From contig JBAQYG010000018.1 in the NCBI GenBank assembly GCA_049299915.1, forward strand, positions 1-36,578: a stretch of DNA of 36,578 nt, in the 5' to 3' direction. Position 1 is the first letter of the stretch, and each line of letters begins with the position of its first letter. The translations under genes were made by a program, and so were the position numbers. Shown here one piece after another: positions 13,239 through 34,268 of this stretch. Source of the DNA: Minisyncoccia bacterium (GTDB lineage: Bacteria > Patescibacteriota > Minisyncoccia > UBA6257 > JAVHQB01). Below the pieces are notes generated by a model. It saw only the letters and a program-made list of their open reading frames with translations, did no database searches and was not told the DNA's origin.

Positions 13239-15071
13239 TTAAATTAATTGTATTTTAAGTCTTCTTACTCCGAAGGAAGAAGCTTCCTCTTTAATTATCT
13301 TAATTGAACCTATTTCTTTAGTTTCTTTAACGTGGGGACCTGCACAAATTTCTTTTGACCATGTGTTACCACTAGCATCTTTAAAAGAATAGACCGTGAC
13401 TACATCAGGATAGCGAGCCGCAAAAACACCAATAGCTCCACTTTCCAGGGCTTTTATAACAGGCATTTCTTCTTTTTGAACAGTTAAATTTTCGGCTATT
13501 TTCTGATTAATCAAATCTTCTACTTGTTTAATTTCTTCAGGAGTTAGCTTCCGCGGAAAATTAAAATCTAAACGAGCTCTTTCAGAGTTTATATCTGAAC
13601 CTCTTTGAGCTATATCTCTATCCAGAATTTCTCTTAAAGCTTGAAAGGCCAAATGAGTAGCACTGTGAAGTTTGGTAAGAATTTGAACATCTTTTTCGTT
13701 CCATTCATAACCACTCTTAAGTCCATGACCGCCGAATTTCTTTTCTACTCCAGCTCGTGAAATTTCTTGATGTTTTTTAAAGGCTTCTTCAAACCCACTA
13801 GTATCAACACTCATACCTTGTTCTCTAGCTATATCCACAGTAACTTCTAGGGGTAAGCTTGATGTTTCATAAAAACTGAATGCTTCTTTAGCAGAAATAG
13901 TGGTCTCCCCTTTTTGCTTGTGTTCAATTATAAGAGCAAGGACGTCTTTAGTACCTTTTTCTAATGATTTTTCAAATTTTAATTCTTCTGCTTTAAAAAT
14001 CTCTAAAAAATAATCAATATTTTCTAATTGGGGCCAGAAATCTTTATAATTTTCTCTAGTTGTTTGCGCTAAAACCTCTTGCCAATTAGAGGGTAATTTA
14101 AGCTTTTGGGCATAACGTACTGCTCTTCTAATTATTCTTCTTAAAATATATCCCCTATCAGTATTTGAAGGAAGAACACCGTCGGTAATAAGAAAATAAC
14201 TTCCCTTTAAGTGGTCGGCTATAATTCTTAGGGCACGCCAATTTTCTATATCTAAATTATGGCTATTTAAACCACTTAATTCTAATAATTTATTTATTAA
14301 AGGTTTGAATAAGTCCGTATCAAAAATTGTGGGAACAACCCCTTCTTCTGTTACTTTGCTTAAATTATCAAATTGAGAAACTAGGGTTAATCTTTCTAAC
14401 CCCATACCCGTATCTATTCCTAATTGTTTAAGAGGTGTTAGTTCACCTTGTTCGTCACTATAAAATTCGTTAAAGACTATATTCCAAATTTCTAATCCGT
14501 CTAAATAAATTTCTACTGTTGGTCCGCAAGGTCCAGAATTGCCCGTGGGTCCCCAAAAATTATCTTCCCTTCCTTGTCCTATAATTTTTTCTGGATCAAT
14601 CCCCGAAGAAATAATAGCCTCATAGCCAGTTAGGTCTTTGGGAGTTTTATCATCTCCTTTAAAATAAGTAAAAGTCATTCTACTTGAGGCTAATACTAAT
14701 TCATCAACGAGAAAATGATAAGCTAGAGAAAAAGCTTCTTTTTTGGAATAAGCTCCAAAAGAAAAATTACCCAACATCTCAAAAAAGGTGAGATGAGAAA
14801 CATCTCCCACTGATTCTATATCACTCGTTCTAAAACATTTCTGAATAGAAACTACCGTATTCCCTCCTAGTGGCTTACCTAAACCTGGGTGATTATCCAC
14901 TAAGGGATCTAATTGCTTGGTATAGTAGGGCTTGAACTGTTGCATTCCTGCTGAAGTGAAAAGAACACTGCTATCACTTTCAGGTACTGCCGAAGATGAC
15001 GGTATAATTTGATGACCGTTTTTGGAAAAATAGTTAAGGAATTTTTGTCTGATTTCGTTAGAAGAATACAT
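13239..15071 (-). CDS. alaS: Alanyl-tRNA synthetase, short form (610 aa)
   Basis: FTSAGMQQFKPY, FFEMLGNFSFG, and editing-domain HSATHLAFQAL...CAGPHV. The ORF stops soon after the editing domain. Confidence 0.9.
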   Translation of the reverse strand: MYSSNEIRQKFLNYFSKNGHQIIPSSSAVPESDSSVLFTSAGMQQFKPYYTKQLDPLVDNHPGLGKPLGGNTVVSIQKCFRTSDIESVGDVSHLTFFEMLGNFSFGAYSKKEAFSLAYHFLVDELVLASSRMTFTYFKGDDKTPKDLTGYEAIISSGIDPEKIIGQGREDNFWGPTGNSGPCGPTVEIYLDGLEIWNIVFNEFYSDEQGELTPLKQLGIDTGMGLERLTLVSQFDNLSKVTEEGVVPTIFDTDLFKPLINKLLELSGLNSHNLDIENWRALRIIADHLKGSYFLITDGVLPSNTDRGYILRRIIRRAVRYAQKLKLPSNWQEVLAQTTRENYKDFWPQLENIDYFLEIFKAEELKFEKSLEKGTKDVLALIIEHKQKGETTISAKEAFSFYETSSLPLEVTVDIAREQGMSVDTSGFEEAFKKHQEISRAGVEKKFGGHGLKSGYEWNEKDVQILTKLHSATHLAFQALREILDRDIAQRGSDINSERARLDFNFPRKLTPEEIKQVEDLINQKIAENLTVQKEEMPVIKALESGAIGVFAARYPDVVTVYSFKDASGNTWSKEICAGPHVKETKEIGSIKIIKEEASSFGVRRLKIQLI

Positions 15072-15131
15072 ACAAATATTGAAAGAAAATTCTTTTCATT
15101 GTAACTTTTTTAGTTCTTATTGTCCAGAAAA

Positions 15132-16211
15132 TCATTGAATAATACCACCACCCAAAAGCTTGTTCCCGCTATAAATAACTACCGATTGACCCGTAGTCGG
15201 AGTCCACTGGGGCTTTTCAAAATAACCAATTAATTCTTGCTTGTTTTTCGTTCTCCAAGTTACTTGTTGATCAACTTGGCGATAGCGAATTTTAGCTGTA
15301 GTTTTAAGCGGCCATTTTTGAGGTCCTTGAGTGTCTACCCAACTTAATTGGTGAATCCGAATTTCTTGGCTCCATAATTCGGAATAGTCTTTGCGAGCTA
15401 CATAAATTATATTATTGTCTATATCTTTTTTAACTATAAAATAAGCCTCTCCCCCACCCCCACCAAAACCATGTCTTTGTCCAAGGGTATAAAATGCAGC
15501 TCCATCATGATTGGCTACAATTTTATTTTCTGGTAGTAGAATAACTGGTCCTGGTTTAGCTTGTATTCTCTGCTCCAAAAAATCTGCTAATTTTACTTTA
15601 CCCACAAAACAAATTCCTTGGCTATCTGGTTTTGTTGCCACTGGCAACTTAAAACGTATGGCTAGTTTTCTAACCTCTGGTTTAGTTAAATGTCCAATAG
15701 GAAATAGGGTATGAGCTAATTGATATTGATTAAGCTGCCATAAGAAATAAGATTGGTCTTTGTTTTTATCTACACCTTTAAGTAATTCTTCTTTTGAGTG
15801 TAACCAACCTATATGTTTCACCCTGGCATAATGACCAGTAGCTATCATATCTGCTCCCATAGCTAGGGCCTTATTTAAAAATAAACCAAATTTGATTTCT
15901 CGATTACATAACGTATCGGGATTAGGGGTTTCTCCTTTAGCATAACCATTGAACAAATAATCTACTACTTTGTTTTTGTATTCTTTTTGGAAATCAAAAG
16001 TATAAAAAGGAATTTCTAATGCTCGGGCTACACTTTGAGCATCTTCTTGATCTTTGACCCAAGGACAGCCACTTTCATTTGTTTCATCTGGAGCCCAATT
16101 CTTCATAAAAATGCCAGTGACATCATAACCGGCCCTCTTTAAAAGAGCGGCGCTTGTAGCGCTATCCACTCCTCCAGAAAGAGCACAAAATACTTTTAAA
16201 GGCTTACTCAT
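15132..16211 (-). CDS. mnmA: tRNA-specific 2-thiouridylase MnmA
   Basis: PP-loop CALSGGVDSATSAALL, DQSYFLW, CFVGK; 359 aa; TGA stop. Confidence 0.9.
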   Translation of the reverse strand: MSKPLKVFCALSGGVDSATSAALLKRAGYDVTGIFMKNWAPDETNESGCPWVKDQEDAQSVARALEIPFYTFDFQKEYKNKVVDYLFNGYAKGETPNPDTLCNREIKFGLFLNKALAMGADMIATGHYARVKHIGWLHSKEELLKGVDKNKDQSYFLWQLNQYQLAHTLFPIGHLTKPEVRKLAIRFKLPVATKPDSQGICFVGKVKLADFLEQRIQAKPGPVILLPENKIVANHDGAAFYTLGQRHGFGGGGGEAYFIVKKDIDNNIIYVARKDYSELWSQEIRIHQLSWVDTQGPQKWPLKTTAKIRYRQVDQQVTWRTKNKQELIGYFEKPQWTPTTGQSVVIYSGNKLLGGGIIQ

Positions 16212-16786
16212 CGTGTTTCTGTATTTCTTAATAAGCTATATTCACAACCACAATACTTCTGTCTGTAGATACCATATTTTTTAGTAAGTTCTAATCCTTT
16301 GTTATAAGCTGTTAATTTGTCTAAAGGAAAAGTTTCATAACGTAATCCCATTTTATCAGCCAATTTATTCCCCCAGTCATTTATAAATTCAGTATCTTTA
16401 TAACGGTTAAGGCTTAAAGTTGTAGCCATATTATCGTATCCTAATTCTTTGGCTTTTGAAGCTAAAGCATTCAATCTGAAAGCCAAACACTCTTTGCATC
16501 TTTCTTCGTTTTCAAAATAACATTCAGGTCCTTTTACTAAATTTCTTTTTAAATAAATGAGCCAATTCTTACTATCGTATTCTCCTTCTATTAGGGTTAT
16601 GCCATAAATTTTAGCAATTTTCTCTACCTCCCTAAACCTTCTCAAATATTCACTGGGAGGATACAAATTGGGATTATAAAAATAGAGGGCTAAATTTTCA
16701 GCCCCCATTTTCAAGTCGTGAATTAAATAATCAATAATTGGCAATCCACAAGGAGCGCAACAAATATGCAAAAGTATTTTGCTCAT
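16208..16786 (-). CDS. queH: Epoxyqueuosine reductase QueH (DUF208)
   Basis: HICCAPCG ... YFYNPNLYP ... YRQKYCGCEYS Cys motifs. It has a 4-nt overlap (ATGA) with mnmA. Confidence 0.85.
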   Translation of the reverse strand: MSKILLHICCAPCGLPIIDYLIHDLKMGAENLALYFYNPNLYPPSEYLRRFREVEKIAKIYGITLIEGEYDSKNWLIYLKRNLVKGPECYFENEERCKECLAFRLNALASKAKELGYDNMATTLSLNRYKDTEFINDWGNKLADKMGLRYETFPLDKLTAYNKGLELTKKYGIYRQKYCGCEYSLLRNTETR

Positions 16787-16828
16787 GCTTTTACTTTATC
16801 ACTAATTAGAACTCTAATCAACGAAATT

Positions 16829-17338
16829 TTATGGTTGTGGCTTCCCGAATTCCTGGGCAACAAAAACAACAGTTTTTCCATTATAAATCCCTTCCATAGT
16901 AGCCATACCTATTTCCGTATAATGCGGATCCACTATATTCGCCCTATGGCTAGGAGATTTCATCCAAGAAGGGAGAATGTTCTGATAATTCTTGAAATTA
17001 ACTGCCAAATTTTCACCTGCATAACGATAATCATAGCCAGCTACCACAAACCAGTGCCATGGCGACACTCCTGTAGGGCTAACATGAGCAAAGTAACCAT
17101 TCTTAACCATATCTTGTACTTTGAGTTCTGCTACCCTATTTAAAGCTAAATTAACTTTAAGGGGTTTGAGTCCTAAAGCAATTCTTTCTGTATTGGTAGC
17201 TAAAACCATCTCTTCCACCATTCCGGAAGAATAATTGATAGCTCTAGCTGTCGAACTTAAAGAAAAACTACCTATAAGACTTAAAACCAAAACACCCAAA
17301 AACAATTTTTTTGTAGATAACATAAAAAAGAGAGGCAT
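16829..17338 (-). CDS. Secreted CAP/SCP (YkwD-like) domain protein
   Basis: Signal peptide ending STARA, then NTERIALGLKPLKVN...GYFAHVSP...YAGENLA...WMKSPSHRANIVDPHYTEIGMA, typical of CAP domains. Confidence 0.8.
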   Translation of the reverse strand: MPLFFMLSTKKLFLGVLVLSLIGSFSLSSTARAINYSSGMVEEMVLATNTERIALGLKPLKVNLALNRVAELKVQDMVKNGYFAHVSPTGVSPWHWFVVAGYDYRYAGENLAVNFKNYQNILPSWMKSPSHRANIVDPHYTEIGMATMEGIYNGKTVVFVAQEFGKPQP

Positions 17339-17405
17339 GTGTATTCGACTTATCTACCTAGTTGAATACGCTGCCCCTCCTTGCAGTTATCTCCTAAAGT
17401 AAATA

Positions 17406-17482
17406 AGCGACCGGTTACGCCACTGACTCCCCATAGCTTTTAGGCGTCCAATTTTACAAGCTATGGATCAACGTCTTCGCCT
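17406..17482 (-). promoter_or_regulatory. Structured RNA element, copy A (c-di-GMP-II riboswitch-like aptamer)
   Basis: RNA: AGGCGAAGACGUUGAUCCAUAGCUUGUAAAAUUGGACGCCUAAAAGCUAUGGGGAGUCAGUGGCGUAACCGGUCGCU. It has a 9-bp P2 and a loop/3'-tail pseudoknot ACGCC/GGCGU. It covaries with copies B and C. Confidence 0.6.
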
Positions 17483-17497
17483 ATTTAAAATTTTTAA

Positions 17498-17527
17498 CCA
17501 AACAAAAAAGACCTTTATGAAGGTCTT
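17498..17527 (-). terminator. Intrinsic terminator between aptamer copies B and A
   Basis: Minus-strand AAGACCUU-CAUA-AAGGUCUU followed by UUUUGUUUGG. Confidence 0.7.
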
Positions 17528-17550
17528 ACTCATTAGTCACTTAAAAACAT

Positions 17551-17626
17551 TAGTGGCCGGTTACACCATTGGCTCCCCGCAATTCAAGGTGTCCAATTAA
17601 GGATTGCGGATCAAAACCTTCACTAA
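17551..17626 (-). promoter_or_regulatory. Structured RNA element, copy B (c-di-GMP-II riboswitch-like aptamer)
   Basis: RNA: UUAGUGAAGGUUUUGAUCCGCAAUCCUUAAUUGGACACCUUGAAUUGCGGGGAGCCAAUGGUGUAACCGGCCACUA. Same architecture as A, with compensatory changes in P1, P2 and the pseudoknot. Confidence 0.6.
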
Positions 17627-17630
17627 CCCT

Positions 17631-17659
17631 AGTATGGACTCTTTTTTGTCCCTAGTCAA
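17631..17659 (-). promoter_or_regulatory. Candidate promoter immediately upstream of aptamer B
   Basis: The minus strand reads TTGACT-N17-CATACT. The predicted start falls a few nt before P1 of copy B. Confidence 0.35.
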
Positions 17660-17672
17660 GCACAACCCAATT

Positions 17673-17990
17673 CTATCTCTTTTCCCGTCTAGATAATAAA
17701 AGTGCCAATATGAGAACTACGATGCCTAATATAAATAACCACCAATAACTTAAACAGCCCCCAATCACAAAAAAGAGTAAATAAATAAGAATTAGCACAG
17801 TAATCAGGAAAGCAATCCAGATATTAAGGCGTTTGGCTGCAGTCAAAGAAATAACTACTAACATTAAGATTAGACTTAGTAATATAGCGATCCAATTATT
17901 TAAGCATATTCTCATTGAGAGATATGTAAGTATCGCTGTTAGAATCAATCCTATAATTAAAATTTTCTTAGAATTAGTCATATTTTTCAT
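17673..17990 (-). CDS. Small polytopic membrane protein (last gene of the TasA/SipW string)
   Basis: 105 aa that are almost entirely hydrophobic (3-4 predicted TM segments). It overlaps the upstream gene by 17 nt. Confidence 0.55.
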   Translation of the reverse strand: MKNMTNSKKILIIGLILTAILTYLSMRICLNNWIAILLSLILMLVVISLTAAKRLNIWIAFLITVLILIYLLFFVIGGCLSYWWLFILGIVVLILALLLSRREKR

Positions 17991-18864
17991 GACGTTTTTT
18001 AGCTAAAATGGCACAACCAAATGTTATTGCTAGTCCTAATAACAAAACCCACCAAGGTTTTAAACAAGTACTGCAAGTATTCCCCCCTAGACATAATAAA
18101 GAAGCTAAGAAAGAATTTATTCCTAATGATAATAATTTGGTTTTGCAGGAAGAAAGTTCTTGCTCTGTAGCTGCGCCTAAAATCAGCCCAGGAATAGTTG
18201 TAGTAGTAACATTATTAGTATTTTGAGTCCCTCCTAGTGTACCTCCTTCTTGTACTATTCCCTCTTCTAAGGGCTCACTTTCAGTAGTGATACCCTCTAC
18301 CCGACCGGGTTCAGTGGTAACAGTGGTTGTGCTTGAATAACCCCCACCGCCACCACCAGAAGTATAAGTTTGTTCATCAGAAGTGTTGTCATCATAACCA
18401 GTAATAGAAATATCAAAACCCAAGTGTTTCCCTTGATACTCATTTCCAGAGTTAGGATCAAAGTGAATAATATAATCATATTGAGTTGGAACTCCCCCTG
18501 TAGCCAAATTCGGAAGAGATAGATTACCTATATTAAAAAAATGGGAAAGAGTGCCGTTATAAAAAGAAGTGCTGCCATTTTTAATTTCCAAATTCAAAAT
18601 GCTACCCAAACCTTCATCATCAATTACATTTGTTGCTTTGGTTACTATCTTCAAAGGATTAGTGGTATTGTTTGTAATTTTTATCCAACGGGTAACATTG
18701 TCTCCGGGTAAAAAGTTGGCTTCATTAAACAAGGACAATGGTGGTTCATTTTCAAATTGAACCGCAAAATTAGCGATGTCGGCCTGGACAGGCTCAGCAA
18801 ATAAAAGACCAATGCTAAAAATGGCTGTTAAAGAAATTAAAATAGTTTTTAATGCTTTATTCAT
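17974..18864 (-). CDS. Secreted TasA-fold-like protein with Gly/Thr linker, Cys-rich segment and C-terminal TM anchor
   Basis: The likely start is MNKALKTILISL at 18864, 7 nt after the preceding stop; the tracked ORF extends to 18903. Signal peptide ...AEPVQA. The LFNEANFLPGDNVTRWIKITNNT and QGKHLGFDISI blocks resemble TasA/camelysin strands. The end reads CLGGNTCSTCLKPWWVLLLGLAITFGCAILAKKRHEKYD. Confidence 0.6.
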   Translation of the reverse strand: MNKALKTILISLTAIFSIGLLFAEPVQADIANFAVQFENEPPLSLFNEANFLPGDNVTRWIKITNNTTNPLKIVTKATNVIDDEGLGSILNLEIKNGSTSFYNGTLSHFFNIGNLSLPNLATGGVPTQYDYIIHFDPNSGNEYQGKHLGFDISITGYDDNTSDEQTYTSGGGGGGYSSTTTVTTEPGRVEGITTESEPLEEGIVQEGGTLGGTQNTNNVTTTTIPGLILGAATEQELSSCKTKLLSLGINSFLASLLCLGGNTCSTCLKPWWVLLLGLAITFGCAILAKKRHEKYD

Positions 18865-18871
18865 ATATCTT

Positions 18872-21136
18872 TTATTCGCTTGGAATAATTTCACTACCTT
18901 CAACGATATCGTTAACGCTTATTTCTGAAACTAATTTGGCTTCAATAATTGGTTGGCTCTCAATAATTGGGCTGATTTCATCAACAGGGGGCACATCAAG
19001 AACTGGGGCAACTGGTTCTTCTACAATGACCATCGTTTCCTCTGTAACGGGCTCCGTAGTCGTTGTCGTTGTAACCTCTACTGGAATTGTAGTGGTTGTA
19101 GTAGAATTTGTTTCTTCAATTAAAGATTCAATAGTAGTTGTAACGAGCTCCTCTAATGGTACATCTATTTCCGGAATTGTAGTTGTAGTTGTGGTTGTGG
19201 ATATGATTCCTTCAAGTAAGAGTGAACCAATAGTTATTGGCTCTTCTTCGGTTATTTTATTAAGTGTTCCTGGGGTAGGAATAGGATCTTGCCAAGCACC
19301 TATACCATCAGGAATTCTGGCATAAGATTTATTACCAGGAATTTCTGACGGGCAACTGCCTAAACCAGTTTCATTATTAGCAGTATCTGGGGTTGGCTCT
19401 AAAGTACAATAGGTTGATAAGTTATACGAATAAGAATCTATTAAATTATTTAGATTATCGTAGAGCGAAACGGTATCATTATTGTTATTTAATGTTTCCC
19501 CATTCATATATACTACTATCCAATCACCAGAATTAATAGTGGTAATCCCGGTATTAGTATTGGCAGGAGTTATATATTTAATATTTCCCTCTATGTCTTT
19601 AATGTACCAGCCAGCTAAATCCACTGTAGAACCACTCGCTTTATTGTAGATTTCTACCCATTCTCCTTTGGGCATTAAATCGTTATCTTCTCCGAAATCA
19701 AAACCGTATTCAAAGCCACTGGGATTAGGTAAAAATTCATTTAGAACAATATTCTCTGAAGCAGTACCTGCTAGATAGGTCACTACAACTTCTTGCAATA
19801 TTGGTGTCTGGGTTATATCTGTAGTAGTCAAAGTAGTTCTCCATTTAATATGGGTAGTCTCTGGTAAGCTAGTCAAATCAATAGACGAACTGCTCGATCC
19901 TAATATCCAATTAGACCAGGTAGTACCATCATTAGAGGTAGCCACTTCTAGAGTAATATCGGTACCAGTTGGTAATGTTTCTATCCAACTCAATTGTTGC
20001 CATCTCTTAATCGCTCCAGCATCAAATATTTGTGATTCAAATATACCAGGAGAATTGTTATAGGCTGGAGCAGAATAAACCATCATTTCCAAGACACCTG
20101 GCTGGCCATTATCGTCAGGAATATAAAGACGAACATATCTAGCATTCACTGTTGAGAAAGTATAGGTTAATGGCCCAGCATTATTATTGCCAGTTACGTT
20201 AGCCACAATGGATTGTTCTCCACCAAAAGCTCCTGTTTGACTTGTTTCCAGTGTGAAAGTATTTGCTATATGTGTGGGATTATCTTTGAAATACAAAACA
20301 ATTTTGTTGATATTATAAGAATTACCTAAATCTACTTTAAGCCAAGCATCCCCATTGCCAGTCCCCTTCCAATAACTATCATTGCTACTAATATCTCCGT
20401 CAAAAGCCTTGCCTGGAGTATGAGTGCTATCAGATGAATCGGCTGTAGCTGCAGCATTATAAGCTAGATTATTACCACCTCCACTACTTAATAGAACTAT
20501 ATTACCTGGATTAGAACTAGTATCAACATTAGTTCCAATACCAGCATTAAAGTCTTCTGGAGTGGTTTGAATCCAACTCCCCGATTCTATTACCCAACTA
20601 CCAGAGGTTACAGTATTAGAAATTTTTTCTTGGTCAGAAAAACCAATTCCACCCGTTTGTAATCCACTAAAGATAAAGTCAAAAGTACAAGTTTGATTTT
20701 GTAAAAGAGGGTCACTACTAGTTAGATTAGTAGTAAATATCCAATCTTCGGGAGCGGTCATTTCGTCTTTACTATAGGTGAAATCTTGGAGGGTGCCAGT
20801 ATAGCCAACATCTATCCCACCCAAACTAGCTTTTAGCTCTAAATAATTACAAAGGTCTCCTATTAAATTATCTACTTTTATTTTGTATTGAAAATTTAAA
20901 TTACCGTCGTTTACGACTCCAATCGTTTCGGTAGAAAGATTGGTCGGTATAATATTGGGTGAAAAATTAGCTTGTTGATTTAAAGAAAAATCTAAGGTTG
21001 CCGCAGTATAACTATTACTTAAAGAAGTTTCGGTATCATTAAAATAAGCGATAGTCTCTATCACTGCCGAAAGACCGGTCCAATTCAGACCGACTATCAG
21101 GGCTATTGCTATAATTTTAATAAAAGATTTTCTCAT
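18872..21136 (-). CDS. SipW-signal/TasA-like N-domain protein fused to F5/8 type C (discoidin) and lamin-tail (LTD) domains
   Basis: The signal ...IETIAYFNDTETSLSNSYTAATLDFSL is SipW-cognate type. Discoidin block: AFDGDISSNDSYWKGTGNGDAWLKVDLGNSYNINKIVLYF...ARYVRLYI. LTD block: IVLNEFLPNPSG...GEWVEIYNKASGSTVDLAGWYIKD...NDTVSLYD. The tail is Thr-rich and acidic. Confidence 0.7.
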   Translation of the reverse strand: MRKSFIKIIAIALIVGLNWTGLSAVIETIAYFNDTETSLSNSYTAATLDFSLNQQANFSPNIIPTNLSTETIGVVNDGNLNFQYKIKVDNLIGDLCNYLELKASLGGIDVGYTGTLQDFTYSKDEMTAPEDWIFTTNLTSSDPLLQNQTCTFDFIFSGLQTGGIGFSDQEKISNTVTSGSWVIESGSWIQTTPEDFNAGIGTNVDTSSNPGNIVLLSSGGGNNLAYNAAATADSSDSTHTPGKAFDGDISSNDSYWKGTGNGDAWLKVDLGNSYNINKIVLYFKDNPTHIANTFTLETSQTGAFGGEQSIVANVTGNNNAGPLTYTFSTVNARYVRLYIPDDNGQPGVLEMMVYSAPAYNNSPGIFESQIFDAGAIKRWQQLSWIETLPTGTDITLEVATSNDGTTWSNWILGSSSSSIDLTSLPETTHIKWRTTLTTTDITQTPILQEVVVTYLAGTASENIVLNEFLPNPSGFEYGFDFGEDNDLMPKGEWVEIYNKASGSTVDLAGWYIKDIEGNIKYITPANTNTGITTINSGDWIVVYMNGETLNNNNDTVSLYDNLNNLIDSYSYNLSTYCTLEPTPDTANNETGLGSCPSEIPGNKSYARIPDGIGAWQDPIPTPGTLNKITEEEPITIGSLLLEGIISTTTTTTTIPEIDVPLEELVTTTIESLIEETNSTTTTTIPVEVTTTTTTEPVTEETMVIVEEPVAPVLDVPPVDEISPIIESQPIIEAKLVSEISVNDIVEGSEIIPSE

Positions 21137-24607: not shown

Positions 24608-27600
24608 TTATTTCTTTTTTCTTAGAACCAAGGCATATAAGCCGCCTCCAATTACTATGAGTCCAAGGAATATTAAGAACCAATTGATATTCTTTTTGCC
24701 AGTTTCATCTAGGGTGCCCAAAACAATTTCTTCTTCTGGTTTAGTAGTAGCTGTTGTTACAGTGGTAGTCGTAGTAGCTTCTGTGGAAGCCCCTAATACA
24801 GACCCCTCTTCACCATAATTTCCAAACCCGCCTCTTTCATTAGTGAGATCTGGCATAGCTAAACCTAATTCGGGGCAAACTATAAGATTAATCTTCCTTT
24901 GGGTAGTTCTGTAAACATATCCCGTAGAATCGTTTGAACTAATAAGAAGTCCTGCATCTACCCATGGTTGCAAAACTTCATCTTTATAAGCTAATTGGAA
25001 AGTAGAAACAGCATTAAAATCATCTTGGCTGTAAATACCATCAACGGGTAAATTAAGACCAAGGTATTCATTAAGGAACTGTTGTAATTTTATAACTTCT
25101 ACTGGGTCATTGTTGCTTCCTAATTTTATATATTTATAAAGATATAAATCACAATTTCCTATAGAAGCACCTAAAACTTCACCTTGGGGTTCAGTGCTCT
25201 CGGTGCTAGCTCCAGCTACTGCAGCAGGAGTAGTTGTAGTGGTAGTAGTACCATCATTACCAGTATATGTAGGAGATGAACCGCCACCACATGATTGAGT
25301 ATTGCAAGATCGGCTTGTGGGTCCTTCACATTGTGCGCCGTCGGCACAAGTTCTTGTTTGAGTTCCGCCACCACAAGTTACCGAACAAGTACCCCATTCT
25401 GACCAACCAACAATATAATTAAAGAAATCTGCTCGGGCTTCGTGGTCAAATTGAGTCTGCACATCTGATTCAACGGTAACCGTTTGGCATAAAGGGTCAC
25501 CACTACCCCAACCAAGTTGCATGACTTCACAGATTTGATAATCTCCATTATTAATATTTTCAAATCGATAGAAACCACCGCCATCTGTAGTTTGATAGGG
25601 TTCTTGCTGGTCAAATTCTTCGTCATGGTCTAAATCAAGATAAATAGTCCAACCATTCATTCCAGCGGCTTCATCGGGATCAGAAGAATCGTACAGACCA
25701 TCACGATCTAAATCATTTATTTTATAACCAGCAATGCTGCCAGTTGGATTGTTATTATAATTCAAGAAAGTAACTTGAGGATGACTATTGGTTTCACTAA
25801 TTACAACTTGGGGGCTACCATCGGGGGTAGGTGCAGTTTGAGTCCAACCAGTTGTTTGGTTTTCGTGTACGGTATAAGTTCCGTATGATAAATTATCGAA
25901 TTCGAAACAGCCAGAAGTTTGATTAGTTGTTTCATTGGCAACTTCATGACCCGCTGGTTCACCCTCGGGATAATACCATAATCTTATACTCCAAGATAAA
26001 GGAGTATCTGTCCCAACATCATATATTCCATCTTGATTAGCATCGTTGTATTTGCAAGCGGTAATAGAACCAGTTGGTATCTCATAATTAAAGAAATTTG
26101 CTTGAGTTTCTACTCCACTAGTAACCACCACCTCTTGGCAAAGAGAATTGCTTGTCCATCCTCCTTTCATCACTTCACATATCTGATAAGTACCAACAGA
26201 AAGAGTTCTAAAACTATAGAAACCTTCTTGATTAGTTGTTGTCTGGAGATTATCTCCATCGTCATTACAGTCCCCGTCTTTATTTCCATCTATACAAATA
26301 TTCCAACCCTCTAAACCCGGTTCTTGTTCGTCCCAATTACCGTCTTTATTTAAGTCATTGTATTTGTATCCAGCAATATCACCTGTCGGAGTCGGATTTT
26401 CTGATATACACTCATAAACTTTCAAATCCAAAGAGTCACTATTATCACTCATTCCCGTCTGATTCTGCCATTCAGTATCAAACCAATCACTATATCTATC
26501 TCCTATAACAAACTGTGTTGAAGGTGAACCGCTTGGAATGGAATAATAGAAATCATAAAAATGATCGGAATTATAAACACCCCAATCAATAACTCCAACT
26601 GTATTAGTACCTAAATTACCTAAAAGAGCATGGGCTGCATAATCATTGCCAGTTCCCAGTATTCCGTATTGAGACTGACCAAGCGTATAGCCAGCATCTG
26701 CCTGTAGAGTACTATTGGGTTTAAATAAGCCCGAAACTCTGAATAGGTAACTTTTCCCACCCGTTAAATTGAATGTTTCTCCGTCGACATCATTACCATT
26801 GATGGACAACTGTTGAATTGGCTGGGAACCTTCAACTGTTCCATTTGGACAACCTTGGTCAGAATGATAAATAGGTATTAAGTGGCAAGTAGTAGAACAG
26901 AAATTGTGGTCGGGAGTTATACCTTCTGTGCCTTCGCATTCTTCAGTGCTATCTTTTACGCCATTGCCACAAGATGGGGCATTAAAACCAACACAATAAT
27001 AAGTATTTTGATACTGAGGATTATTTATGTAGTCATAGTTATCATAATTTAAGATATCATCATGACAATAAAATTCAGCACTAGAGGTTTGGCTAGTGTC
27101 TGTTCCCGTAAAAGGAATAAAATTATTTTGTAAAACTTCTCTTACCCAAATCTTGCTACTTCCATTCAGGTCACTAATGGAGGCAGGCGAAGCAATACTA
27201 AAAGTATTCCAATCACTACCACCAGGACCAACTAAAGCATCGCCAGGATTGCTTACATTTTCATAAGCCCATTCAAAATTCCAATCTTGAGTAAAACGAC
27301 ATTTTCCTTGGCTTTGATCAACCCAATTTTGAGCAGTACCTGAGCCAATTACAGTGTCGGGATAAGTTGAACCACTACCAGCTCCCCAATTTGGAAGGTC
27401 TGATTCGTTATCACAAATTACCTTTGAAGCAACTATTGTTACTGGAGAATTGGCACAATCAGAATCAGCACTATCCTTATATCCGTCACAATCATTATCT
27501 AATTGGTCATTACAAATTTCAGCACCCGTGGAAATACAATTATAATTATCACAAGAATTTCCAATTCCATCATGATCATCATCAACTTGATTAGTATCAT

Positions 27601-27901
27601 CTGAATATGAAGGGCATAAATCGCAAGCATCGCCTATTCCATCTCCGTCGGCATCAGCTTGATCGTCATTAATAGTATTAGGACAATTATCGCAGGCATT
27701 ACCCTTACTATCCTCATCTGTGTTTGCTTGATCTGTATTAGGAGTAGTTGGACAATTGTCTGAAAAATCTGGAAAAGTATCTGTATCGGTATCGGTAATA
27801 GGGTCTCCTGCTAATGCCAATCTGATAAATCCTCCGCTTGACGAAACCATGGAAAAAACCATAGTTACAATCAAAACTTTGGACCAAAATAATTTATTCA
27901 T
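24608..27901 (-). CDS. 1097-aa mosaic surface adhesin (TSP type 3 repeats, Cys-rich repeats, 3 SdrD-B/Cna-B-like repeats, TSP type 1 repeat, PG-binding domain, C-terminal sorting-signal-like tail)
   Basis: Signal peptide, then DNCPTTPNTDQANTDEDSKGNACDNCPNTINDDQADADGDGIGDACDLCP (TSP3) and CGNGVKDSTEECEG. SdrD-B-like repeats: GYKYNDLNKDGNWDEQEPGLEGW...GFYSFRTLSVGTYQICEV, plus two more. TSP1: WSEWGTCSVTCGGGTQTRTC. PG_binding_1-like: VIKLQQFLNEYLGLNLPVDGIYSQDDFNAVSTFQ. The end reads LDETGKKNINWFLIFLGLIVIGGGLYALVLRKKK. Confidence 0.75.
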   Translation of the reverse strand: MNKLFWSKVLIVTMVFSMVSSSGGFIRLALAGDPITDTDTDTFPDFSDNCPTTPNTDQANTDEDSKGNACDNCPNTINDDQADADGDGIGDACDLCPSYSDDTNQVDDDHDGIGNSCDNYNCISTGAEICNDQLDNDCDGYKDSADSDCANSPVTIVASKVICDNESDLPNWGAGSGSTYPDTVIGSGTAQNWVDQSQGKCRFTQDWNFEWAYENVSNPGDALVGPGGSDWNTFSIASPASISDLNGSSKIWVREVLQNNFIPFTGTDTSQTSSAEFYCHDDILNYDNYDYINNPQYQNTYYCVGFNAPSCGNGVKDSTEECEGTEGITPDHNFCSTTCHLIPIYHSDQGCPNGTVEGSQPIQQLSINGNDVDGETFNLTGGKSYLFRVSGLFKPNSTLQADAGYTLGQSQYGILGTGNDYAAHALLGNLGTNTVGVIDWGVYNSDHFYDFYYSIPSGSPSTQFVIGDRYSDWFDTEWQNQTGMSDNSDSLDLKVYECISENPTPTGDIAGYKYNDLNKDGNWDEQEPGLEGWNICIDGNKDGDCNDDGDNLQTTTNQEGFYSFRTLSVGTYQICEVMKGGWTSNSLCQEVVVTSGVETQANFFNYEIPTGSITACKYNDANQDGIYDVGTDTPLSWSIRLWYYPEGEPAGHEVANETTNQTSGCFEFDNLSYGTYTVHENQTTGWTQTAPTPDGSPQVVISETNSHPQVTFLNYNNNPTGSIAGYKINDLDRDGLYDSSDPDEAAGMNGWTIYLDLDHDEEFDQQEPYQTTDGGGFYRFENINNGDYQICEVMQLGWGSGDPLCQTVTVESDVQTQFDHEARADFFNYIVGWSEWGTCSVTCGGGTQTRTCADGAQCEGPTSRSCNTQSCGGGSSPTYTGNDGTTTTTTTPAAVAGASTESTEPQGEVLGASIGNCDLYLYKYIKLGSNNDPVEVIKLQQFLNEYLGLNLPVDGIYSQDDFNAVSTFQLAYKDEVLQPWVDAGLLISSNDSTGYVYRTTQRKINLIVCPELGLAMPDLTNERGGFGNYGEEGSVLGASTEATTTTTVTTATTKPEEEIVLGTLDETGKKNINWFLIFLGLIVIGGGLYALVLRKKK

Positions 27902-28232: not shown

Positions 28233-28260
28233 AAAAAACCAGCTCATAAAATAAAGCCGG
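28233..28260 (-). terminator. Terminator hairpin overlapping the 3' end of aptamer copy C (candidate expression platform)
   Basis: Minus-strand CCGGCU-UUAUUUUAUG-AGCUGG followed by UUUUUU. The 5' arm CCGGCU is part of the conserved AACCGG/P1 3' segment of the aptamer. Confidence 0.55.
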
Positions 28261-28324
28261 TTTTGCCATTGACTCGCCATAGTCTTAAGGCAACCAATTT
28301 GTAGACTATAGGTCTTCGTCTCTT
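28253..28324 (-). promoter_or_regulatory. Structured RNA element, copy C (divergent c-di-GMP-II riboswitch-like aptamer)
   Basis: RNA: AAGAGACGAAGACCUAUAGUCUACAAAUUGGUUGCCUUAAGACUAUGGCGAGUCAAUGGCAAAACCGGCUUU. P2 is CUAUAGUCU/AGACUAUGG and the pseudoknot is UUGCC/GGCAA. It lacks the GUUGAU block seen in A and B. Confidence 0.5.
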
Positions 28325-28367
28325 AGGACTAGTTAGTTGTCAAAAAACACTTATCTAAATTATTTTC

Positions 28368-30036: not shown

Positions 30037-31713
30037 TTATTTCCCCAATATCGTATCCAAGATATTTTTTAATTTTTTAGTGTCCACATTCTGTTTGTTA
30101 GGACGACTGCTAGTCGTAGCCCTTATCGCATCAGTATGTTTATCTGGTTTGGCTGTAAAAGAAGCCGGTACAACGTTTTTGGTAACGCTATCCAAAGCTT
30201 CTATCTTTCCTGTTTTTATATTCTCTAAACAATCTGAACAGTATACTGGTCTATTGGCATCTGGCTCAAAGGGTACACTAATAGGTCGGGCGCATAGTGA
30301 ACATTTGGTCACCCAACGAGTCTTTTCTTTTGTTGATTCTTTATTACCATTATTTCCCCTATCTACTTCTGCGGGAGGATTTCCTGTGTCCAATCCATAA
30401 TTATAAACACTCCAATCACTAATTGTTTTTTCTACTTCATTTTTATGACCGCTATAAAGACTACGAGAGTATTCTTTTATTTTTTCCCGGTTGGTAAACT
30501 TAATCCTATCAAAGGGTGGAATGTTTAAAGCAGAAAATGGTTCAGATACATAACCGTCAACCATTAAGCGCATATAGAAATTAAAGTTGGGCAAGTTGGA
30601 GATATCTATAGCACTGAATTGGCGTTTACATTCATTTTCAAAATACATGGCATCCTCTATACCTAAACGATATAGAACCATTGTGCCGACGTTACCAATA
30701 ATAGCGTCTCTCACCGTATCGTTAAGCTGAGCCACATACTGATGGGCCATTATGAGATTCAAATGGTACTTACGGGCTTCAGATAAGATATTGGCGAAAG
30801 AATCAGTAGAGAAATTCTGAAACTCATCTACATATAAATAAAAGTCAGGGCGCTCTTCCTCGGGTACATTAACTCGAGACATAGCCGCCAATTGCAGCTC
30901 AGTAATAAGAATGGCACCTAAAAGAGCAGAATTGTCCTCCCCTATTAGCCCCTTAGAAAGATTCACTATCAATATCTTGCCATTGTCTATAATCTCTCTT
31001 AAATTTATTTTGCTGTGTGTTTGGCCAATGATATTTCTAATTAAAGGATTAGAAATAAACTGACCAATCTTATTCTGAATGGCAGCTACGGCTTCCTGAG
31101 CATATTTTTCGTTATAGTTTGCGAATTCGTTTACCCAGAAAGATTTAACCATTGGGTCTTTGACGTAATCTACTACTACCTGGCGATAATTCTTATCGCT
31201 CAGCATTCTGTTAATACTTAAAAGAGTTGTATCTGGATATTCTAGAAGAGCTAATAAAGTATTATTTAAAATGTATTCCATTCTGGCAGACCAAACATCT
31301 GGCCAGATCTTTTTAAATACTGCCATGAGTCCCGAACTAATTAAATGACGAGACTCTGGAGTAACGTCTTCCATTACGTTGAAAGAGATTGGCCAATCTA
31401 AATCACTTGGATTGAAATACACCACGTCTTTAATTCGTTCTTCAGGAACATAGTCCAACATCAAATCAGCAAATTCTCCGTGAGGATCCACAATACCAAT
31501 ACCTGAGCCATTTTTAATATCAGCTATAGCCATGTTCTCCATAATAGTAGTTTTACCGGTACCAGTTTGCCCGATAATATACATATGGCGACGCCTATCT
31601 TTGGCCTTAATCCCAAATTTGGTAAGATCCCCTCTAAAATTAGTTAAACCTAGTGGGATTAATTGATCGTCTTCGACTATATATGATTTTTTTATTGGGA
31701 TATCTTCAGTCAT
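30037..31713 (-). CDS. VirD4/TraG/TrwB-like (type IV coupling protein-like) P-loop ATPase lacking TM segments, with C-terminal CxxC-x17-CxxC zinc ribbon
   Basis: Walker A IIGQTGTGKTT, Walker B FYLYVDEFQNF, and ARKYHLNLIMAHQYVAQL typical of the TraG/VirD4 C-terminal half. The C-terminus CSLCARPISVPFEPDANRPVYCSDC has exactly 17 residues between the Cys pairs (nt 30229-30303). Confidence 0.7.
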   Translation of the reverse strand: MTEDIPIKKSYIVEDDQLIPLGLTNFRGDLTKFGIKAKDRRRHMYIIGQTGTGKTTIMENMAIADIKNGSGIGIVDPHGEFADLMLDYVPEERIKDVVYFNPSDLDWPISFNVMEDVTPESRHLISSGLMAVFKKIWPDVWSARMEYILNNTLLALLEYPDTTLLSINRMLSDKNYRQVVVDYVKDPMVKSFWVNEFANYNEKYAQEAVAAIQNKIGQFISNPLIRNIIGQTHSKINLREIIDNGKILIVNLSKGLIGEDNSALLGAILITELQLAAMSRVNVPEEERPDFYLYVDEFQNFSTDSFANILSEARKYHLNLIMAHQYVAQLNDTVRDAIIGNVGTMVLYRLGIEDAMYFENECKRQFSAIDISNLPNFNFYMRLMVDGYVSEPFSALNIPPFDRIKFTNREKIKEYSRSLYSGHKNEVEKTISDWSVYNYGLDTGNPPAEVDRGNNGNKESTKEKTRWVTKCSLCARPISVPFEPDANRPVYCSDCLENIKTGKIEALDSVTKNVVPASFTAKPDKHTDAIRATTSSRPNKQNVDTKKLKNILDTILGK

Positions 31714-33101: not shown

Positions 33102-34268
33102 TTATTTTTTAAGCGTATAACGTTTATCTTCAGTCTTGAGGAAGTATTTCTTGTTCTGGAGGTTCAAAAGTATAGTATTGTCTTTAACCACTCTCTGTTC
33201 TTTAACCTTTACTATAACTTCTTCGAGGGTTAAGGGTGTTTTCGCTTCTGAGAGAATCTTTTGTAATACCTGTTTAACTGTTCCCGGTTGATATCCCCAT
33301 TGAGTTAGAGCGTAGATACCTCTGCCTACCAGGACAAAACGCTTGTCTTTGATTAGTTCATTATGAACTGTTTGTACTTGAATATTTCTTTTCCAAAGAT
33401 TGCTACCACCATTATCATTCCAAATGTATTCTCCACTAACATTAATCGCTATTGGTTCATTAATAAGTTTAGATATTTCACTGAAATGAAGGGGTTTCTT
33501 AATGTGTTTCATTATAGCGTAAGCCCTGTCTTTCACTCCACGTGGTTTAATTTCGTAGCTCTTAGCTAAACCATATTCATTGAAAGGATTTCTTTGTACT
33601 TGTTTACTAATGAAACAATATGAGGAAAGATTTTCTAAAGATAAATTTTCTCTCCAGTTTTTGGCAATATTGTAAAGACTTTCAAACGGCATTGGTTCCC
33701 CTACTTGTTGCAACTTTTCCACTACTTTTTTTATAAAGCTTTCGTAATCTTTTCTATAGAAACTATCGTCATGTTGCAAGTGCCAATAATTGTAATAATT
33801 GTCAGTTTCCTTTTCTTGATAAACATTAGCGGAAAGTTTCAAAAAGAATCGGGCAAAATTCCCTATTCTTTTTACAGATTTAGGGGCTTCTAATTCTTCG
33901 GCTAATGCTTTATAAAATCTTTCACTTTCCATCGCTCCTCCACTGTTTTTCAAAATGGCTAAAGAAATTTCTTCAAATTTTTTCCAATCCAGTGGTCTTT
34001 CTTTTTTATCAATAAGAGCTAGGGCATTATTTTCTATCTGACGAACTCTTTCTCTGGTGATATGATAAGTTTTTCCTATAGCTTCTAAAGTCTTGGGTTC
34101 ATCATCGATTAATCCGAAGCGCATCTCTAAAACAGCCCTGCTTTTGGGAGCGAGAGCCGTTAAAATATCTTTGGCAATGCCAGTTAGATTTAGATTCACA
34201 CCGATATTTTGTGAGGTACCTCTGACCTCTGTGCCGTTATTCATTTTGTCTTGATTAAGGTTCTGCAT
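33102..34268 (-). CDS. Sigma-70 region 4-only protein fused to HARE-HTH-like winged-helix modules
   Basis: SRAVLEMRFGLIDDEPKTLEAIGKTYHITRERVRQIENNALALI matches RpoD region 4.2, and no region 2 is present. The C-terminal half has AYAIMKHIKKPLHFSEISKLI...HNELIKDKRFVLVGRGIYALTQWGY (HARE-HTH pattern) and a second wHTH-like segment. Confidence 0.65.
   Translation of the reverse strand: MQNLNQDKMNNGTEVRGTSQNIGVNLNLTGIAKDILTALAPKSRAVLEMRFGLIDDEPKTLEAIGKTYHITRERVRQIENNALALIDKKERPLDWKKFEEISLAILKNSGGAMESERFYKALAEELEAPKSVKRIGNFARFFLKLSANVYQEKETDNYYNYWHLQHDDSFYRKDYESFIKKVVEKLQQVGEPMPFESLYNIAKNWRENLSLENLSSYCFISKQVQRNPFNEYGLAKSYEIKPRGVKDRAYAIMKHIKKPLHFSEISKLINEPIAINVSGEYIWNDNGGSNLWKRNIQVQTVHNELIKDKRFVLVGRGIYALTQWGYQPGTVKQVLQKILSEAKTPLTLEEVIVKVKEQRVVKDNTILLNLQNKKYFLKTEDKRYTLKK

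Follow-up and report, generated by a model that had tools for sequence, protein, structure and literature searches.

Two class II cyclic di-GMP riboswitches in series, probably acting as OFF switches, precede a secreted CAP-domain gene on a Paceibacterota chromosome

The DNA studied here, a stretch of 36,578 nt (the window, to which all coordinates refer unless a contig is named), carries a gene for a secreted CAP-domain protein whose leader contains two aptamers of the class II cyclic di-GMP (c-di-GMP-II) riboswitch family, named copy A and copy B. The gene, which is YkwD-like, lies on the minus strand at 16829-17323, encodes 164 aa with a signal-peptide-like N terminus and matches Pfam PF00188 (E 3.7e-17). 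Its start codon, the ATG at 17323 (protein start MLSTKK), is conserved, and the close homologues P0001, P0002 and P0004 from public collections are 164 aa long as well. An ATG at 17338 was rejected as the start, since it reads CAAG in the related contig L128 and since these homologues have the length given by the later codon. A sequence-only reading of this DNA had placed copy A 67 nt before the ATG of the CAP gene; this distance is correct for the ATG at 17338, but that codon is not conserved and the real start is the one at 17323. Genes for QueH, MnmA and alanyl-tRNA synthetase (AlaRS) follow 42 nt behind the CAP gene. No terminator was detected between them with a consensus scan, and read-through from CAP into these genes appears possible.

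Judged from its genes and relatives, the window is chromosomal DNA of a Candidatus Paceibacterota bacterium, a member of the candidate phyla radiation (CPR). Its GC content is about 35%, and its open reading frames (ORFs) include housekeeping genes for ribosomal proteins, RpoA, GluRS, AlaRS, MnmA, QueH, FtsW, MurG and EF-P, besides many genes for secreted proteins. The nearest species-representative genome is a Candidatus Paceibacterota metagenome-assembled genome (MAG; L001) with an 80% identical CAP protein, and the close CAP homologues carry the source labels Paceibacterota, Zambryskibacteria or Patescibacteria. A phage origin was ruled out by the chromosomal gene content (ribosomal proteins, aminoacyl-tRNA synthetases, FtsW, MurG), and a megablast search with positions 14000-21000 gave no match to phage records. 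A Shine-Dalgarno (SD) motif was found upstream of none of the 33 ORFs in the window, the regions before the starts being just A/U-rich, and translation initiation in this organism is apparently independent of SD pairing.

RNA families were called with Rfam cmscan on the whole window. Copy A, the downstream sensor with an 11-bp P1 (17400-17487, minus strand), matched the c-di-GMP-II family RF01786 with 71.2 bits (E 3e-14), and copy B, the upstream sensor (17546-17630, minus strand), with 63.9 bits (E 3.5e-12). Both matches span model positions 1-84 of 84, thus the full length, and exceed the gathering score of 53.5 bits. The sequence-only reading had assigned both copies to class II and had named such a match as a check, and the assignment stands. 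The strands that it had described were likewise all read on the minus strand in both copies. The blocks UUGAUCC, AAUUGGAC, GGGGAG and GUAACCGG are common to A and B, and the pairing elements differ. Copy A has GGCG/CGCU as P1, CCAUAGCUU/AAGCUAUGG as the hairpin and ACGCC/GGCGU as the pseudoknot between loop and tail; the corresponding strands of copy B are AGUG/CACU, CCGCAAU/AUUGCGG and ACACC/GGUGU. Aligned to the Rfam consensus, both copies contain the unpaired core nucleotides (UGA, loop UUGG, GGAG and the A-ACCG of the 3' tail). The sole departure in the core, common to both, is GUAAC for consensus GCAAC. The changed base is the 3' member of a pseudoknot pair, and a G-to-A change in the loop offsets it, so that one G-C pair of the consensus is A-U in the 5-bp pseudoknot of both copies. 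As far as can be assessed in silico, every feature places the two copies in the c-di-GMP-II class, and we infer that c-di-GMP is their ligand. The remaining Rfam matches in the window at E up to 0.1 (Rp_sR47, Plastid-ycf2, MIR5200) were far under their gathering scores and were judged spurious.

The leader was read on the minus strand from 17660 to 17300, and promoters and terminators were located with consensus scans. A promoter-like site (TTGACT-N17-CATACT, 17631-17659) is followed by copy B, a terminator named T_B (17498-17528), copy A, a second terminator named T_A (17324-17382) and the ATG, all on the minus strand. The promoter-like site and the strong terminator flanking copy B had been proposed from the sequence, and both were recovered by the scans. 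The long terminator hairpin of copy A was absent from that account; with it, each aptamer has a terminator of its own, which bears out the description as two complete sensors in series. A further terminator-like match at 17424-17406 was taken as a by-product of the aptamer sequence, because it falls within the conserved core of the aptamer and its U-tract is poor. The consensus scan found no promoter-like site between 17498 and 17487 on this strand, although such a scan cannot exclude one.

Folding was done with RNAfold, which ignores the pseudoknot and the ligand, and the energies of candidate antiterminator duplexes were compared with those of 2000 shuffles. T_B consists of AAGACCUU-CAUA-AAGGUCUU followed by UUUUGUUUGG, has an energy of -8.5 kcal/mol, lies 20 nt past the copy B aptamer and is conserved in all relatives. 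Its 5' arm and loop form the 3' strand of a predicted antiterminator. The 5' strand of this helix is GUGAAGGUUUUG (17612-17623, minus strand), which overlaps the 5' strands of P1 and of the inner 3-bp helix, and it pairs over 12 bp with UAAGACCUUCAU (17528-17517) at -14.3 kcal/mol, an energy equalled by none of the 2000 shuffles. The complementarity of ACCUUCA to UGAAGGU claimed earlier is therefore real, and longer than claimed. When the nascent copy B RNA was extended to include the 5' arm and loop of T_B, the minimum free energy (MFE) structure changed from the aptamer (-22.5 kcal/mol) to the 12-bp helix (-29.6 kcal/mol), and on addition of the T_B 3' arm it reverted to aptamer plus terminator in the window and in the near-identical contig L003. 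The helix was the MFE structure of the nascent transcript also in L003, L124, L125 and L129. Both promoter hexamers are kept in L124, L125, L128, L129 and L130 (-35 TTGACA/T, -10 CATACT/TATAAT), with a variable spacer.

T_A is a 21-bp interrupted hairpin from AAGGAGGGGCAG to CAUGCCUCUCUU (-23.9 kcal/mol) with the loop GUAGAUAAGUCG, followed by U6 and directly by the ATG. In L003, L124, L125 and L126 the stem shows compensatory changes, namely a swap of G-C to C-G and an A/C mismatch repaired to G-C, and the loop is invariant. The predicted antiterminator of copy A starts from the P1 3' strand and linker, UCGCUUAUUUACUU (17397-17410, minus strand), which pairs over 14 bp with AGGUAGAUAAGUCGA in the loop and upper 3' arm of T_A (17359-17345). 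The duplex has an energy of -14.1 kcal/mol, compared to -12.8 kcal/mol for P1, and was matched by 4 of the 2000 shuffles. All seven leaders tested had it as the MFE structure during transcription, and in each of them the MFE structure passed from aptamer to antiterminator and then to aptamer plus terminator. At the base of T_A the motif AAGGAGG (17382-17376) pairs with CCUCUCUU. It was considered as a ribosome-binding site and rejected, as it lies at least 50 nt from the conserved ATG and is engaged in this pairing; since SD motifs are not used in this genome, it is regarded as a terminator arm. Within 17321-17392 (minus strand), the start region AUGUUAUCUAC is complementary over 7 bp to AGAUAAC, which lies upstream of T_A, and over 8 bp to the T_A-loop segment GUAGAUAA, and it resembles the P1 3' strand CUUAUUUAC. 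These complementarities could be a translational layer or a coincidence of an A/U-rich leader.

The tandem layout is conserved in relatives: all seven fetched contigs of close relatives with a complete leader have it, and one further relative, L001, has another leader (see below). Contigs L002 and L003 encode an identical CAP protein behind the same leader, and in L124, L125, L128, L129 and L130 (CAP proteins 77-96% identical) two RF01786 matches precede the order CAP-QueH-MnmA-AlaRS. L131, fetched via the 61%-identical paralogue P0007, has the tandem pair before the first of its CAP genes, and L126 and L127 start inside copy B. Copy A is almost invariant across eight related leaders, and copy B shows in L128 a compensatory hairpin change from CCGCAAU/AUUGCGG to CCACAAU/AUUGUGG. 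Conservation is higher in the leaders than in the coding sequence: in L129, leaders A and B are 93.1% and 90.6% identical, respectively, and the coding sequence is 74.9% identical. For the analysis of covariation, which had been named as a further check, 19 aptamers from the window and related contigs were aligned on the Rfam architecture plus the pseudoknot, with pairing partners slid by 1-3 columns as controls. In this alignment standard pairs were formed in 87.6% of cells, compared to 30-41% in the controls, and 21 of the 27 pairs showed changes on both sides. Covariation was seen in P1, the inner helix, the hairpin and the pseudoknot, the last of which was paired in 100% of cells with double changes at three of its five pairs.

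More distant CAP homologues, in a Zambryskibacteria contig (L132) and in L133, have no riboswitch before CAP, and the association of riboswitch and CAP gene is thus limited to a subclade. In L131 (4261-5492) and L126 (289-1518) two CAP paralogues are consecutive, the second behind one B-like aptamer that has a promoter and a terminator to itself; together with the tandem pair this makes three c-di-GMP-II aptamers within 1 kb. Metagenomes were also scanned with a pattern for this aptamer subtype. Among the matches listed, most were high-GC soil contigs with single aptamers, so that the scan was of little use on the CPR question; the only low-GC contigs among them were L006, L114, L078 and L079. 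Two of the high-GC soil contigs, L058 (1287-1641) and L107 (1701-2245), have two RF01786 aptamers on the same strand with gaps of 186 and 374 nt, and tandem or near-tandem layouts are therefore not confined to Firmicutes or CPR.

Starting from the class membership, the covariation of the helices, the conserved tandem layout, the two terminators and the statistically unusual antiterminator complementarities established here, we consider it likely that the CAP leader consists of two complete class II c-di-GMP riboswitches in series that act as independent transcriptional OFF switches. They would be independent because each aptamer has its own terminator and its own antiterminator helix competing with P1. 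Sequence and folding point to the OFF polarity, since a P1 locked by ligand allows the terminator to form in both copies. In copy B the P1 5' strand would alternatively pair with the 5' arm and loop of T_B, and in copy A the P1 3' strand would pair with the loop and upper 3' arm of T_A. When the ligand is absent, the antiterminators would prevail during RNA synthesis and RNA polymerase would read through. When c-di-GMP is bound, P1 would be locked, the terminators would form and transcription would end, at about 17500 for T_B and directly before the start codon for T_A. As transcription would have to clear both checkpoints, the pair should shut off CAP more tightly and more steeply at high c-di-GMP than a single switch, with a sharper dose-response. 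CAP would thus probably be off at high c-di-GMP, and the pair should also stop read-through from the upstream cluster.

Several observations weigh against two ligand-dependent OFF switches. The full-length MFE structure of copy A has P1 and T_A together, so that this switch rests on a kinetic argument, and its 11-bp P1 (-12.8 kcal/mol) may form without ligand. The strands of antiterminator A are invariant and thus provide conservation but no covariation. The T_A stem is unusually long and interrupted, and it was not called by a simple terminator scan. For copy B, the full-length MFE structure through T_B keeps the antiterminator in L124, L125 and L129 and the terminator hairpin is not predicted, and in L128 the antiterminator is different and weaker (GUAAAG/CUUUAC plus CCGAU/AUCGG). 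The GUAAC found in both copies in place of GCAAC is compensated in the pseudoknot but leaves room for an altered specificity, and no GGDEF, EAL or HD-GYP gene is present within the 36.6-kb window.

A single cooperative unit with one platform, as in tandem glycine aptamers, or a copy B that is a decaying duplicate without function, is highly improbable to us. Among relatives copy B is indeed the more variable of the two, and the outer pairs of its P1 are poor. However, the aptamers are 58 nt apart and this spacer holds a conserved terminator with a U-tract, which is not the arrangement of a shared glycine-type platform. With T_B between the aptamers and T_A past copy A, each having its own antiterminator complementarity, the leader has the layout of separate platforms. 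In copy B, moreover, no core nucleotide has been lost and compensatory changes occur in relatives, a sign of purifying selection on the structure, and the pair is retained in every close relative with an intact leader. It is unlikely, though less so, that the elements are real c-di-GMP-II riboswitches of which one or both are ON switches, or that copy A acts on translation, for example with T_A and the AGAUAAC/GUUAUCU pairing masking the start codon. The full-length MFE structure pairs AGAUAAC (17392-17386) with GUUAUCU from the G of the start codon on, enclosing T_A, and the T_A-loop segment GUAGAUAA is complementary to UUAUCUAC just past the AUG. These start-region pairings are weaker (-7.7 and -8.9 kcal/mol, respectively) than the antiterminators, and conservation of the region is ambiguous because the sequence is also coding. 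The pilA1 class II riboswitch of Clostridioides difficile is an ON switch, and a third aptamer in the same window, described below, has an ON design. An ON design requires, however, that the terminator overlaps the aptamer, which is the case for neither A nor B, and the only strong alternative pairings join P1 strands to parts of the terminators, which is an OFF topology.

We regard it as very unlikely that the c-di-GMP-II fold is used here for another ligand, i.e. another cyclic dinucleotide or related nucleotide, as with the variant classes that were split from RF01786. The GCAAC of the RF01786 consensus is replaced by GUAAC in copies A and B and by AAAAC in the third aptamer, the third aptamer scores under the RF01786 gathering score and just over that of the GAG variant model, and the variant families share one Rfam clan. 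The C-to-U/A change falls, however, on the 3' member of a pseudoknot pair whose loop partner has changed from G to A/U (column pair 42/73: AU 14, UA 4), and the adenosine that has become G in the GAG consensus is retained in all three copies. Copies A and B exceed the gathering score by 10-18 bits, and GGDEF proteins are common in the lineage.

The third aptamer (28246-28332, minus strand) is divergent and lies at the head of a secretome cluster upstream of CAP. It scored 41.7 bits with RF03169 (c-di-GMP-II-GAG), just above the gathering score of 40, and 43.6 bits with RF01786 at a relaxed threshold, under the gathering score of that family. When it was included in the alignment, every pseudoknot cell was paired. 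According to the Rfam consensus lines, from which the distinctions between the two families were drawn, RF03169 has GAG in the 3' tail where RF01786 has GCA. The third aptamer reads GGCAAAACCGG at this site, with AAA aligned to the consensus GAG, and from its sequence it is better described as divergent c-di-GMP-II-like than as a GAG variant. Its predicted terminator, AAAACCGGCUU/GAGCUGGUUUU followed by UU (28233-28264, minus strand; RNAfold -13.5 kcal/mol), overlaps the 3' end of the aptamer, as the 5' arm AAAACCGGCUU comprises the conserved ACCGG and the P1 3' strand. Because the terminator arm is the aptamer's own 3' end, the element is predicted to have an ON design, opposite to A and B. 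The aptamer lies 345 nt upstream of a 1097-aa adhesin-like gene (SdrD_B/TSP, 24608-27901). The leader between them (to 27902) has further terminator-like hairpins, e.g. UUGGCCUAAAGAGCCAAUUUUUU at about 28037-28015, and the start of a 13-codon ORF lies in the terminator loop.

In the MAG L001 (361-642) the CAP gene is preceded not by the tandem pair but by the promoter, aptamer and terminator of this third, ON-type riboswitch (28489-28226 in the window). The two leaders are 90% identical over 271 nt (blastn), and the junction lies 13 nt into the CAP coding sequence (window 17310 onward). Were it not for a 1-nt frameshift, translation from an ATG in the terminator loop would yield a good signal peptide. 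As the coverage of the MAG is 5x, the arrangement may reflect an assembly error or a pseudogene as well as a real leader swap.

From 27901 to 16829 the cluster encodes the adhesin-like protein, two Peptidase_M73 proteins (TasA/camelysin-like), an S26 signal peptidase, an F5/8C-LTD protein, two unknown proteins and CAP. The Zambryskibacteria contig L132 (1-5522) likewise has the order M73, signal peptidase, LTD, unknown, CAP, there without riboswitches, and in the low-GC contig L006 (848-5198) a set of M73, peptidase and LTD genes lies behind a c-di-GMP-II aptamer. A cluster of two Peptidase_M73 proteins, an S24/S26 signal peptidase, an LTD-domain protein, unknown proteins and CAP is thus recurrent in CPR. 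Tentatively, and with more doubt than confidence, we propose that this one secretome cluster is under a reciprocal c-di-GMP RNA circuit, with a class-II-like ON switch at its adhesin-like head and the doubled OFF switch at its CAP tail. The ON switch at the head would perhaps also serve the genes for the TasA/camelysin-like proteins, the SipW-like peptidase and the LTD protein, if these are co-transcribed with it. At high c-di-GMP the head of the cluster would be on, with the two terminators holding CAP off and blocking read-through, and at low c-di-GMP the reverse would apply. If true, this would be a lifestyle toggle made of riboswitches only, e.g. between attached and unattached states. The leaders would then be exchangeable modules, and CAP in L001, with an ON leader in place of the tandem OFF pair, would have a flipped polarity.

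As to the source of the ligand, the Patescibacteria contig L133 encodes a stand-alone GGDEF protein of about 200 aa with a GGEEI motif (1-449). It has more than 1000 database relatives at E <= 1e-15, the best 120 of which (P0121-P0240) are 56-77% identical to it, and the source names available for some of the relatives are Paceibacterota, Parcubacteria, Zambryskibacteria or Patescibacteria group. Because small GGDEF proteins are this common in Paceibacterota/Parcubacteria records, endogenous c-di-GMP is plausible. Sensing of host-derived c-di-GMP was considered, as the window has no GGDEF gene of its own, and is less likely given these relatives.

Two further features of the window lie outside the riboswitch-CAP locus. 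The AlaRS (13239-15071, minus strand) has only 610 aa and stops after the second additional domain, and it is of equal length in the relatives L124, L128 and L131. The minus-strand loci 30037-31713 and 33102-34268, upstream of the secretome cluster, encode a coupling-protein ATPase (TrwB/TraG-like) that contains a treble-clef zinc finger, and a protein in which sigma-70 region 4 is combined with a HARE-HTH domain.

Single c-di-GMP-II riboswitches, which have the fold and the presumed ligand of the elements studied here, were reportedly described by Lee and colleagues in 2010. In C. difficile the class I riboswitch of flgB is an OFF switch. As in C. difficile, c-di-GMP would here steer surface and secreted functions in both directions in one genome (ON for the adhesin-like head, OFF for CAP); unlike in C. 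difficile, both predicted directions would be exerted via class II aptamers, with the OFF arm doubled. Tandem c-di-GMP-II riboswitches are known as 59 doublets and 9 triplets, mostly in Paraclostridium and mostly before a putative surface anchor protein gene (COG4932), and c-di-GMP-II is included among the same-class tandems with "multiple expression platforms, pseudo-cooperative" (Sherlock et al., 2022, RNA Biol, PMC9481103). The CAP leader resembles these tandems in its RF01786 class, in having at least two complete units per 5' leader, in its exported or surface protein target and in the sharper response to be expected. It differs from them in its host (CPR/Paceibacterota and not Firmicutes), in its CAP/YkwD-like target, in the A-U pair of its 5-bp pseudoknot and in that both units look like OFF switches by modelling. 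The triple-tandem c-di-GMP-I riboswitch Bc3-5 (Sci Rep 2016, PMC4759541) likewise has several complete c-di-GMP riboswitches serially in the 5' untranslated region of one gene, but its three units are class I (GEMM-I) aptamers and its host is a Bacillus species. Tandem thiamine pyrophosphate (TPP) riboswitches with independent terminators (Welz and Breaker, 2007, RNA) are given in Table 1 of PMC9481103. On that tabulated account they are similar in being two serial and independent OFF switches for the same ligand, with their own terminators and a more digital response, and differ in ligand and aptamer class, TPP being a metabolite and not a second messenger.

A search of the full-text literature found no publication on c-di-GMP riboswitches in CPR, Patescibacteria or Parcubacteria, and these groups are absent from a 2025 survey of contiguous riboswitches. 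The sequence-only reading had called two sensors in series notable in this type of genome. This holds for the CPR (Paceibacterota) chromosome, for which no such literature was found, and does not hold for the tandem c-di-GMP-II architecture, which was already published (PMC9481103). The RNA class and the tandem layout are known; new are the lineage of the host, the gene under control and the apparent double-OFF logic. For riboswitch biology the gain is modest, consisting of one more tandem c-di-GMP-II case with this apparent OFF logic and with an unusual platform in which the terminator loop would be used as an antiterminator strand.

CPR/Patescibacteria make up a large share of bacterial diversity, and gene regulation and the use of second messengers are barely known in them; Paceibacterota have tiny genomes and few known regulators. 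A well-understood sensor before secreted and surface genes, together with widespread small GGDEF proteins, would provide a testable handle on c-di-GMP signalling in CPR bacteria, and it indicates CAP-domain proteins and TasA-like or adhesin-like proteins as outputs of this signalling.

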